Below, piece by piece: positions 9,827 to 11,801 of a stretch of 14,875 bases of DNA. This stretch comes from a virus. Below the pieces are notes generated by a model, which worked only from the letters and a program-made list of their open reading frames with translations, searched no databases and was not told the origin of the DNA. The stretch's first letter is position 1. Every line of letters starts with the position of its first letter. Location of the stretch: UHGV virus genome UHGV-1730466, one strand, 5' to 3'. The position numbers and the translations under genes are program-made.

Positions 9827-11314
9827 TTAAAATCCGCGCAGGCGCTTCGGTAACATGAGGCCTATCGCCTGTGGCTGGCTTAGTTCGGTAATACCCCATA
9901 CCATCGCGTCCATACGGTCAGGGGATTTTTTAGCGGTAGCTGGCACGTATTCCATCATTTGATTTTCCAGCGTGTACAGACTGCCAGTGTGTGCCACTCT
10001 GCCTTGAGCATACAGTGCAGATATTGGTTCGGCGCGGGCGAATTTACCTTTGCTTGCGTGCACCTTAACAATGCGGCCTTTGAACCCTGCATTGCGTAGT
10101 GTGGCCTCTGCCATGTCACCGCCCTGGTTGGTTTCGATAACCATCGCGTCAGCTTCATGGATGTCATATGCTTTCATGGATGCTTGCGCCCAGTCGTTAG
10201 GCGACATGCGGCCTGAATAGTCACCATCAACAGAATACTGAGCATTCTTACCGCCACCATATGCGGAACACGCCACGATCCCCGTTTCGTCAGATTCATC
10301 AGATGACGTTGTCGCCGGGTCGATGGCTATTACCGTGCGGATCTTGTCCTGCGTTATCTGCATCCGGTGCGCTGCGGTTATCATCGCTTCAGTCCACAAT
10401 GCACCATCTTCGTCGAACTTACGCGGGCGCTGCATGTACTGGGCCTCAAATGACCGCCTGTGTGCTTTCAGTCCAGCTTCATGGGCGTCATTGTGCTTTT
10501 TAGGCCACAGCCAACCATCAGGCAGGTTGTGAGCAATAGGGATGGCGAACTCGTTTTCAGGGAACAAATCCCGATAGTCAACGCTGTTGTCGATCTTCAC
10601 TGGCAGGTTAAGGTGATACCATTTTTCACCGCTCCCACCGCGTAGCAGGTAGCCGGACAAATCATCGTAGTGGATGCGCTGCATGATGACGATAACAGGC
10701 GTGGTTTGCACTGCCAGACGTGAAGCAAGCGTGTCGTTATAGTTGGTGTTAACCTGCTTTCTCACCACGTCAGAGTAAGCGTCAGCGGGTTTTAATGGGT
10801 CGTCGATTATTAACGCACCGTTAAATCCGTCTTCCATATGGCCCGCACGGAACCCCGTTACCTGTGCAAGCGTTGACGTTGCATACACGCCGCCGCCGTA
10901 CTGATTCCACCACATAGATTTACTGTCAGCATCGGCCTTTATATCCATCTTCCACATTTCTTGAAATTGTCTTGATTTGATAGTGGATCTTGCTGTTGAT
11001 GAATTGAGTAACGCGAGGTTGTTGGAGTAGGACAAGTGTAGGAATCGTGAACGGTTGTTGATGGCGAGGCCGCGACACATGAAATTGATTGTTGCGATCT
11101 CTGTTTTGGAATACCCTGGAGGGATGTTAATGACCAAACGGGTTATTTCGCCATTAATGACTCTTTGTAGTGTTTCAAGGATGACTCTGTGATGTGCGCT
11201 AATTATCATTTTTGCGCCAGTGCGCTGCTTATAGAAATAGCGGCAAAAATACTCACCGCTTTCTATACATTCTATTCGCCTGGCCTCTGTTCTTTGCTTA
11301 CTGGTTGACTTCAT
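9827..11314 (-). CDS. terL: Terminase large subunit, 495 aa
   Basis: Size, position next to the small subunit and portal genes, N-terminal ATPase-like region (PPGYSKT, DDPLKP) and C-terminal nuclease-like region. Confidence 0.85.
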   Translation of the reverse strand: MKSTSKQRTEARRIECIESGEYFCRYFYKQRTGAKMIISAHHRVILETLQRVINGEITRLVINIPPGYSKTEIATINFMCRGLAINNRSRFLHLSYSNNLALLNSSTARSTIKSRQFQEMWKMDIKADADSKSMWWNQYGGGVYATSTLAQVTGFRAGHMEDGFNGALIIDDPLKPADAYSDVVRKQVNTNYNDTLASRLAVQTTPVIVIMQRIHYDDLSGYLLRGGSGEKWYHLNLPVKIDNSVDYRDLFPENEFAIPIAHNLPDGWLWPKKHNDAHEAGLKAHRRSFEAQYMQRPRKFDEDGALWTEAMITAAHRMQITQDKIRTVIAIDPATTSSDESDETGIVACSAYGGGKNAQYSVDGDYSGRMSPNDWAQASMKAYDIHEADAMVIETNQGGDMAEATLRNAGFKGRIVKVHASKGKFARAEPISALYAQGRVAHTGSLYTLENQMMEYVPATAKKSPDRMDAMVWGITELSQPQAIGLMLPKRLRGF

Positions 11315-11801
11315 GACTCACCCCATGATTTTCACAATACCCCAAATCAGCGTAAGCCTTATTCCTTGCCACCACAGCATCATCCTTGTTTTCAAAATAA
11401 CCAATGGTCAAACGTTCACCGTTATTACCCATGATACGAACGCGCCATTTATTCATTGCTTTTTCCCAATAAATTCCAGAAAACCCGCTTGTATTTCTTT
11501 TATGTAGTTTTTGGTTTCTTTGGTTTTCCTTGTGTGTAACAAGGCGCAAATTATTAAGCCTGTTATTACTTCGCACGTGGTCAATATGGTCTATTTGATA
11601 ACCATTCGGGATCGGGCCGTTGTGCATTTCCCATATGATGCAATGCGCCGGATAACCGCGCTTGTGAAGTCTTACCCTAATATAGCCGTCGCGTTCCATA
11701 TACCCTGCGACATCACCGATCATAACGTTGTCGCACGGTTTTACCTTCCAGATTAAATTGCCGCTGTTTTCGTCATAAACGAAATAATGTGACCAATCCA
11801 T
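11298..11801 (-). CDS. HNH endonuclease with AP2-type DNA-binding domain (homing-endonuclease-like), 167 aa
   Basis: HNH motif IDHIDHVRSNNRLNNLRLVTHKENQRN; AP2-like segment SGFSGIYWEKAMNKWRVRIMGNNGERLTIGYFENKDDAVVARNKA; inserted between the terminase subunit genes. Confidence 0.8.
   Translation of the reverse strand: MDWSHYFVYDENSGNLIWKVKPCDNVMIGDVAGYMERDGYIRVRLHKRGYPAHCIIWEMHNGPIPNGYQIDHIDHVRSNNRLNNLRLVTHKENQRNQKLHKRNTSGFSGIYWEKAMNKWRVRIMGNNGERLTIGYFENKDDAVVARNKAYADLGYCENHGVSHEVNQ

Follow-up and report, generated by a model that had tools for sequence, protein, structure and literature searches.

A 14,875-nucleotide stretch of UHGV virus genome UHGV-1730466 (hereafter the window) carries a gene for an HNH-AP2 endonuclease-like protein between the genes for the small and large terminase subunits, terS and terL. 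We consider it probable, at about three chances in four, that this is a free-standing HNH_3-AP2 homing-type endonuclease gene residing in the terS/terL spacer of mEp021-like phages with one junction haplotype, termed type B below. The gene is present at this junction in some close relatives and absent from others, an allele with an empty site exists, and the encoded protein has been maintained by selection. The first-pass annotation had proposed a free-standing mobile gene of this kind between terS and terL; its domains and position were confirmed, and homing activity is predicted from the sequence and a structural model. The window was 84-90% identical to the mEp021-group (mEpimmI) temperate coliphages mEp013, mEp021, mEp044, mEp515, mEp010, mEp554 and MagusPhagus, and we assign it to this group on that similarity.

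The gene and its terminase neighbours are as follows.

11298-11801, minus strand: HNH-AP2 endonuclease open reading frame (ORF), ATG start, 167 amino acids (aa) (ORF list, Pfam, PHROG)
11814-12314, minus strand: terS, 166 aa (Sf6_terminase PF20901, 7.8e-37)
9827-11314, minus strand: terL, 495 aa (PHROG_38, 2.3e-93; Terminase_6C, 1.6e-12)

Both terminase genes in the window are complete ORFs, with terS upstream of the HNH ORF and terL downstream. With the end of the HNH stop codon at 11298 and the start of the terL ATG at 11314, the two ORFs overlap by 17 nucleotides (nt), as the first-pass annotation had noticed. The domain matches of the HNH ORF and its placement between terS and terL are far beyond chance.

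Two domains were located in the protein.

11517-11654, minus strand: HNH_3 (His-Me finger) nuclease domain, aa 50-95 (Pfam, alignment with I-HmuI 1u3e, 35-sequence alignment, Foldseek)
11343-11489, minus strand: AP2-like DNA-binding domain, about aa 105-153, three strands and a helix (secondary structure of the model, Foldseek, sub-threshold Pfam match)

The protein matched Pfam HNH_3 PF13392 over aa 50-95 with 78 bits (E=3.5e-22; cut-off 24.8 bits) and PHROG_99 'HNH endonuclease' with E=5.7e-63. I-HmuI (1u3e) was the sole match in a PDB sequence search. Across an alignment of 35 homologues, D71-H72 and N93 were invariant, which is the Asp-His...Asn layout of I-HmuI-type His-Me fingers. The same alignment gave the C-terminal consensus SGxxGVxWxKxxxKWxAxIxxNGKxxxLGxFxxxxDAxxAR, typical of AP2/ERF domains, and several homologues had a precomputed match to PF00847. 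An AlphaFold2 model of the protein had a mean predicted local distance difference test (pLDDT) score of 85, and about 90 in the AP2-like strands (110-113, 118-124 and 130-136) and helix (139-153). When this model was searched with Foldseek, the top match was I-HmuI 1u3e (E=2.4e-4, probability 1.0). The next matches were the AP2 domains of AtERF1 1gcc (probability 1.0, TM score 0.69 over the target), AtERF96, TEM1 and WRINKLED1; probabilities for AtERF1, ERF96 and TEM1 were 0.98-1.0. Given the Pfam and PHROG matches, the I-HmuI match, the invariant residues, the AP2 consensus and the AlphaFold2 and Foldseek results, an HNH_3 plus AP2 architecture is established at the level of sequence and predicted structure.

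An N-terminal HNH domain joined to a C-terminal AP2 domain defines a recognised family of homing endonuclease genes (HEGs) (PMC10448857). Homologues of the window protein occur in at least 2,560 phage records, none above 60% identity and often several per genome, beside unrelated genes (protease, ligase, endolysin, pyrophosphohydrolase). The best match to this HNH lineage in sequenced phage isolates was about 50% identical, and the family has no characterised member close to the window lineage. NCBIfam assigned neither the HNH proteins nor terS to a named family, and PADLOC returned generic 'homing endonuclease' models only.

The inserted cassette and its empty site

An empty-site allele was found in L017, a 53-kb IMG/VR contig without an HNH gene at the junction, whose terS (166 aa) and terL (495 aa, 96% identical) are the alleles found in the HNH-carrying genomes. 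Comparison of the filled and empty junctions defined the following features.

11327-11813, minus strand: inserted cassette, about 488 bp relative to L017 (filled-versus-empty alignment with L017)
11802-11813, minus strand: the cassette's own ribosome-binding site (RBS), TGAGGTGATGTT (filled-versus-empty alignment with L017)
11298-11326, minus strand: phage-derived 3' tail of the HNH ORF, encoding the end of ...GVSHEVNQ and the stop (sequence; L017 comparison)
11315-11324, minus strand: terL RBS, GGGGTGAGTC, within the HNH ORF tail (sequence)
11312-11314, minus strand: terL ATG, within the HNH ORF tail (sequence)
11298-11314, minus strand: HNH/terL overlap, 17 nt (sequence)

The filled junction of the window reads ...GATGATTGC TAG TGAGGTGATGTT ATG GAT ... 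AAT CAT GG / GGTGAGTC ATG AAG TCA ACC AGT AAG..., with the slash at the end of the cassette. The empty junction of L017 reads ...GATGATTGT TAA GGCGGTAAATC ATG AAA TCA ACC AGT AAG..., and the L017-type empty junction sequence is …GATGATTGTTAAGGCGGTAAATCATGAAATCAACC…. The cassette replaces an 11-nt terS/terL spacer, and the insertion falls between the terS stop and the terL RBS.

The cassette ORF has no stop codon of its own. Its body stops at the family-typical ...NHG (C-termini in the 35-homologue alignment usually read ...NHGK before the stop), and the reading frame crosses the terL RBS and ATG before ending at a TAA in terL codons 5-6 that is out of frame with terL. This read-through accounts for both the overlap of 17 nt and the unusual C-terminal extension VSHEVNQ. 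The 5' sequence of terL, including AGTAAG, is also present in L017. With the terL RBS and start codon lying inside the HNH ORF, the terS-HNH-terL operon remains compact and terL retains an RBS.

No flanking terminal, inverted or direct repeats were found around the cassette, and Rfam gave no group I or group II intron or other RNA family there. The missing terminal repeats ruled out a transposon. An ORF of an intron or intein was ruled out by the absent Rfam match together with the position of the insertion between the terS stop and the terL RBS. A promoter and terminator scan around the cassette gave nothing above shuffled expectation. MAFFT alignment of the junction with HNH-less phages misplaced a large gap, and pairwise and segment analyses were used instead.

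Distribution among relatives and exchange of the terminase block

The first-pass annotation had proposed comparing the terS-terL junction among related phages, where universal presence of the gene would speak for a fixed role. The HNH gene was absent from this junction in 7 of 7 related phage isolates, in which terS and terL lie 2 nt apart and together span 1967 bp (versus 2488 bp in the window). It was also absent from all 35 complete Escherichia coli genomes with a matching prophage, most of which had a span of 1967 bp and a few a span of 2005 bp or a partial one, and from 46 mEp021-like IMG/VR loci. The gene is clearly not universal. None of 5,426 complete RefSeq E. coli genomes carried the HNH lineage, and a scan of one-genome-per-species GTDB contigs for the type-B signature found nothing. 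The gene was present at the identical junction in about 10 independent contigs (L004, L005, L006/7/8, L009, L010/11, L016, L094 and L096), with proteins 73-100% identical to that of the window and, in L004, identical to it. The mEpimmI genome paper contains no discussion of HNH or terminase genes.

The gene is missing from the closest phages and from an empty-site allele whose terminase alleles are the same; it therefore appears to be dispensable for packaging and to represent optional cargo. Plaque-forming isolates (mEp021, mEp013 and MagusPhagus) have no HNH gene at terS/terL. These results bear on a domesticated packaging accessory of the type-B terminase, aiding pac/cos cleavage or end processing as HK97 gp74, the phiSLT/phi12 HNH proteins or Skunavirus HrdP do. 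Such a role would suit a gene inside the terminase operon with an apparent translational link to terL, found in about 10 of 11 type-B junctions and under strong purifying selection during a long residence at one site, and homing and packaging roles are not necessarily mutually exclusive according to Barth et al. (PMC10448857). However, L017 keeps intact type-B terS and terL genes without it, and all relatives with the other two junction types (A and C), the plaque-forming isolates included, lack it. The terS product is of the Sf6 type, a headful-packager family, whereas known HNH-dependent packaging is that of cos phages. The protein also belongs to a different HNH family from gp74 (PF13392 versus PF01844): it had no PF01844 match, and BLASTP against HK97 gp74 gave E=1.2. 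Finally, a paralogue of the same architecture lies between lysis genes, where a packaging role is not plausible. We regard a packaging accessory as very unlikely; co-option for packaging, which the first-pass annotation had offered as an alternative, was not upheld, viable relatives packaging their DNA without this gene.

Nearest-neighbour analysis placed the cassette in a larger divergent block.

10850-11913, minus strand: haplotype block of about 1.07 kb, comprising the TerS C-terminus, the HNH cassette and the TerL N-terminus (nearest-neighbour analysis)
11814-11913, minus strand: last ~33 codons of terS, part of the type-B block (homology to HNH-less relatives stops at ~11913)
~10850-11314, minus strand: first ~465 nt of terL, part of the type-B block (identity drop relative to HNH-less relatives)

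Homology to HNH-less (type A) relatives ended within terS at ~11913, about 100 nt short of its stop codon. Identity to HNH-less relatives was 63-78% over the first ~465 nt of terL and 88-100% beyond ~10840-10850. Outside the block, the nearest relatives of the window were HNH-less (L018, L019, L084 and L012, at 96-100%), and HNH-carrying genomes were 91-97% identical; inside the block only type-B loci matched, at 91-95%. Other carriers also had HNH-less nearest neighbours outside the block: L090/L035 for L005, L028/L038 for L006, L040 for L010, and L034/L035 for L094. Outside the block, the HNH-less genome nearest to each carrier (96-100%) differs from one carrier to the next; the block and its HNH gene have therefore been exchanged among at least five backbones, all with nearest relatives that are without it. 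Such exchange is a prediction of homing with co-conversion and is compatible with it; in mosaic phages it is no proof by itself of nuclease-driven transfer. Clustering of HEGs at terminase genes and their location at boundaries of genetic exchange have been reported (PMC10448857), and the block exchange seen here fits that placement.

The C-terminal tail of TerS and the N-terminus of TerL are mutual binding sites in lambda and P22; in P22, TerS residues 140-162 bind TerL residues 1-58 (PMC9611059). The block may thus be a co-adapted TerS/TerL interface module. Its divergence of about 30% would suppress crossovers inside it and would account for its fixed edges. A third terS/terL haplotype without HNH, type C, was observed in L013, L042-L053 and L090, with a terS of ~166-171 aa overlapping a terL of ~500-504 aa. 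Because this HNH-less haplotype exists, the region of the TerS C-terminus and TerL N-terminus is multi-allelic in mEp021-like phages independently of the HEG.

A homing cycle at this site would begin with recognition of the uninterrupted terS/terL junction of HEG-less genomes through the AP2 and N-terminal DNA-binding parts of the protein, which would then nick or cut near the recognised junction. Repair from a co-resident HNH-carrying genome would copy the cassette in, giving super-Mendelian spread. Filled alleles would be protected, the insertion having split the recognition site. Because the flanks are divergent (~30%), recombination would be resolved only outside the block, and the block would move as one unit.

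Selection, allelic clades and competing explanations

The HNH ORF is intact, at 167 aa, in 10 full-length carriers, and the pairwise ratio of nonsynonymous to synonymous divergence (dN/dS) among carriers was 0.06-0.11. Because dN/dS is this low while dS is saturated, the protein has been maintained under purifying selection for a long time. The ORFs fell into three deep clades with 71-78% nucleotide identity and saturated dS, within near-identical flanks; dS in the adjacent 5' region of terL was 0.3-0.7. Pairwise comparison of the clades located the divergence.

~11350-11735: divergent HNH core relative to L009/L016/L094 and L010/L011 (pairwise clade comparison)

The extra divergence is internal to the ORF, at about codons 22-150; clades 1 and 2 were 97-100% identical over the first ~75 nt and over the last ~60 nt. 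Whole-cassette replacement as the origin of the deep clades was ruled out by this internal position and by the near-identical ends in clades 1 and 2. The history of the HNH core is thus partly decoupled from that of its flanks. Candidate reasons are recombination with other alleles, an arms race over specificity, and a constraint that HNH/terL translation places on the ends.

In one carrier, L096 (a 52.8-kb Logan contig, locus at 3001-3503), a 1-nt deletion in an A5 run splits the ORF into parts of 115 aa (HNH) and 52 aa (AP2); the locus is otherwise 99.6% identical to that of L005. The lesion may be an early-decay allele or a homopolymer sequencing or assembly error, and we did not count it as decay. 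Such an allele could come from an inactive relic carried along in the type-B terminase-interface block, with ordinary mosaic recombination as the means of its spread. The block edges are indeed alike in all type-B loci, and mosaicism is general, with junction types A and C exchanged without any HNH gene. Yet the dN/dS values with saturated dS indicate long selection on the protein, the catalytic D-H...N residues are invariant, the 167-aa ORF is intact in every carrier except L096, and the lesion in L096 may itself be a homopolymer sequencing error. An inactive passenger is therefore extremely unlikely.

The same selection would be expected of a nuclease kept for competition or exclusion, which would cut the DNA of co-infecting or co-resident related phages, as marker exclusion or inter-phage warfare, and benefit the fitness of its carrier with no need to copy itself. 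Purifying selection persists although the gene is nearly fixed within type B, differences between the deep clades are concentrated in the ORF core, predicted DNA-binding parts included, several paralogues occur per phage group, and PADLOC lists its 'HEase' models among defence-associated proteins. However, empty and filled alleles at one precise site are the classical footprint of homing, and sequence alone does not distinguish exclusion from homing. A single HEG activity underlies both in T-even phages. We consider a nuclease kept for exclusion without self-copying unlikely.

Several observations weigh against a mobile homing-type gene. Strong purifying selection and saturated dS between clades imply long residence, which a domesticated function would also fit. 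The HNH lineage (at least 73% identity) was found at the terS/terL site only and in type-B flanks only. The gene was present in about 10 of 11 type-B junctions, and the single empty type-B allele found was that of L017. One block edge is common to all type-B loci, including the empty one, and diagnostic A/B sites in the type-B loci revealed neither A/B chimeras nor variable co-conversion end-points. Because all type-B loci share this edge, they provide no independent support for nuclease-driven conversion, and the movement of the block could be ordinary mosaic recombination. The AP2 assignment met a sub-threshold Pfam score (PF00847, E=0.0059, 17.3 bits over aa 105-138; cut-off 33.3 bits).

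Beyond simple homing into cognate empty sites, the enzyme might target the heterologous (type A/C) terminase junctions of competing mEp021-like phages and, via repair, swap in its own TerS/TerL interface module in full, which would make it a gene drive with a co-adapted 'supergene'. The observed movement of the complete 1.07-kb block into five or more HNH-less-like backbones would fit this idea without demonstrating it, and we see it as rather unlikely. If it were true, the three HNH core clades would reflect a specificity arms race with terminase alleles.

Late-region paralogues and known nuclease systems

Other features of the late region of the window are listed here.

14138-14644, minus strand: second HNH_3-AP2 gene, 168 aa (HNH_3 5e-14, AP2 8e-05), 37% identical to the first
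12853-13395: ORF of 180 aa, PHROG_1365, a family of unknown function (mEp013 homologue 90% identical over 126 aa)
8378-9769: portal gene, after terL (Phage_portal_3 PF06381; PHROG_146 portal, 1e-114)

The second HNH_3-AP2 gene lies between the genes for endolysin (ending at 14634) and the Rz spanin (13664-14134). In every relative examined, the other HNH-carrying loci among them, the lysozyme and Rz genes overlap directly. The match to mEp021 and mEp013 (93-97%) begins again precisely at 14144, 10 nt before the Rz ATG, and the 3' end of the lysozyme gene is divergent. This gene looks like another polymorphic HEG at an exchange boundary. The closest phage homologue of its product, from Morganella phage IME1369_02, was 59% identical. 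At a third late-region site, mEp013 (L002, 8646-9131) encodes a 50%-identical HNH_3-AP2 paralogue, mEp013_67, directly downstream of the homologue of the window ORF at 12853-13395 and upstream of terS. Further HNH_3-AP2 paralogues were found downstream of portal or head genes in L034, L080 and STEC306-308. The late operon of mEp021-group phages is a hot-spot for this HEG family.

Three observations concern neighbouring late genes. Within the Rz gene, out of frame, a 70-aa ORF (13732-13944, minus strand) carries a lipobox-like ...VLSGCAS motif, as would fit an Rz1 o-spanin, a usual component of such a lysis cassette. The interval between the ORF at 12853-13395 and terS (12315-12852, ~540 bp) is AT-rich (~41% GC) and has no ORF of 60 aa or more; the homologous stretch in relatives holds variable small ORFs or an HNH gene, and the interval could house a late-operon regulatory region or a pac region. 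Portal homologues in the E. coli prophages L012-L015 are labelled 'anti-CBASS protein Acb1 family protein' by RefSeq/PGAP, probably a quirk of annotation transfer.

The window protein shares with I-HmuI of Bacillus phage SPO1 (HNH_3 PF13392) an N-terminal beta-rich region and a His-Me finger with the Asp-His...Asn layout (D71-H72...N93 in the window). Unlike I-HmuI, which is encoded inside a group I intron and has a helix-turn-helix C-terminal domain, it is encoded by a free-standing gene in an intergenic spacer and ends in an AP2-like domain; the two are about 20% identical overall. The HNH-AP2 homing endonuclease family is the presumed source of plant AP2/ERF domains.

The free-standing HEGs of T-even phages (seg and mob, such as SegG and MobE) are inserted between conserved essential genes, show presence/absence polymorphism and are co-transferred with divergent flanks. 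Their enzymes are GIY-YIG or other HNH types from lytic phages, with mapped cleavage sites and co-conversion tracts. The window gene resembles them in lying between conserved essential genes, in its polymorphism among close relatives and in divergent flanks that move along with it. It differs in its temperate coliphage host group and in block edges that are fixed rather than variable, and its cleavage activity is presumed.

HNH-AP2 HEGs of phages, cyanobacteria and ciliates, and the 'IPA-HNH' genes of phage ICP1, share with the window gene an N-terminal HNH and a C-terminal AP2 domain and are likewise free-standing and multi-copy; they too adjoin essential genes, including terminase, and mark exchange boundaries (PMC10448857). 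The Pfam HNH_3 profile does not capture the IPA-HNH domains, which have diverged too far, whereas the window protein is a canonical HNH_3 member.

The genes of HK97 gp74, the HNH proteins of Staphylococcus aureus phages phiSLT and phi12, and Skunavirus HrdP likewise adjoin terminase genes and encode nucleases of the HNH superfamily. Cos phages conserve packaging-type HNH proteins and cannot do without them (PMC12967558, PMC10448857). The gp74-type proteins belong to PF01844, lack AP2 and are mostly encoded upstream of terS, whereas the window protein combines PF13392 with AP2 and is encoded between terS and terL. They are kept in all relatives and are essential for packaging in cos phages; the window gene is absent from most relatives and stands in an Sf6-type terS context. 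Identity as a gp74-type packaging HNH protein was ruled out by family membership and by distribution (isolates, prophages, IMG/VR loci and L017).

The biological weight of these results is modest: they describe a well-resolved natural HNH-AP2 homing-type gene in human-gut temperate coliphages (mEpimmI), a group hardly examined for such elements. They also warn that an HNH gene adjoining terminase should not automatically be annotated as a packaging factor. Filled, empty and possibly frameshifted alleles are all at hand, which makes homing, target specificity and co-conversion directly testable with existing isolates such as mEp021. The gene sits exactly between the two halves of the TerS-TerL interface, in a block that is exchanged as a unit, and thereby illustrates the reported association of nuclease genes with boundaries of genetic exchange.

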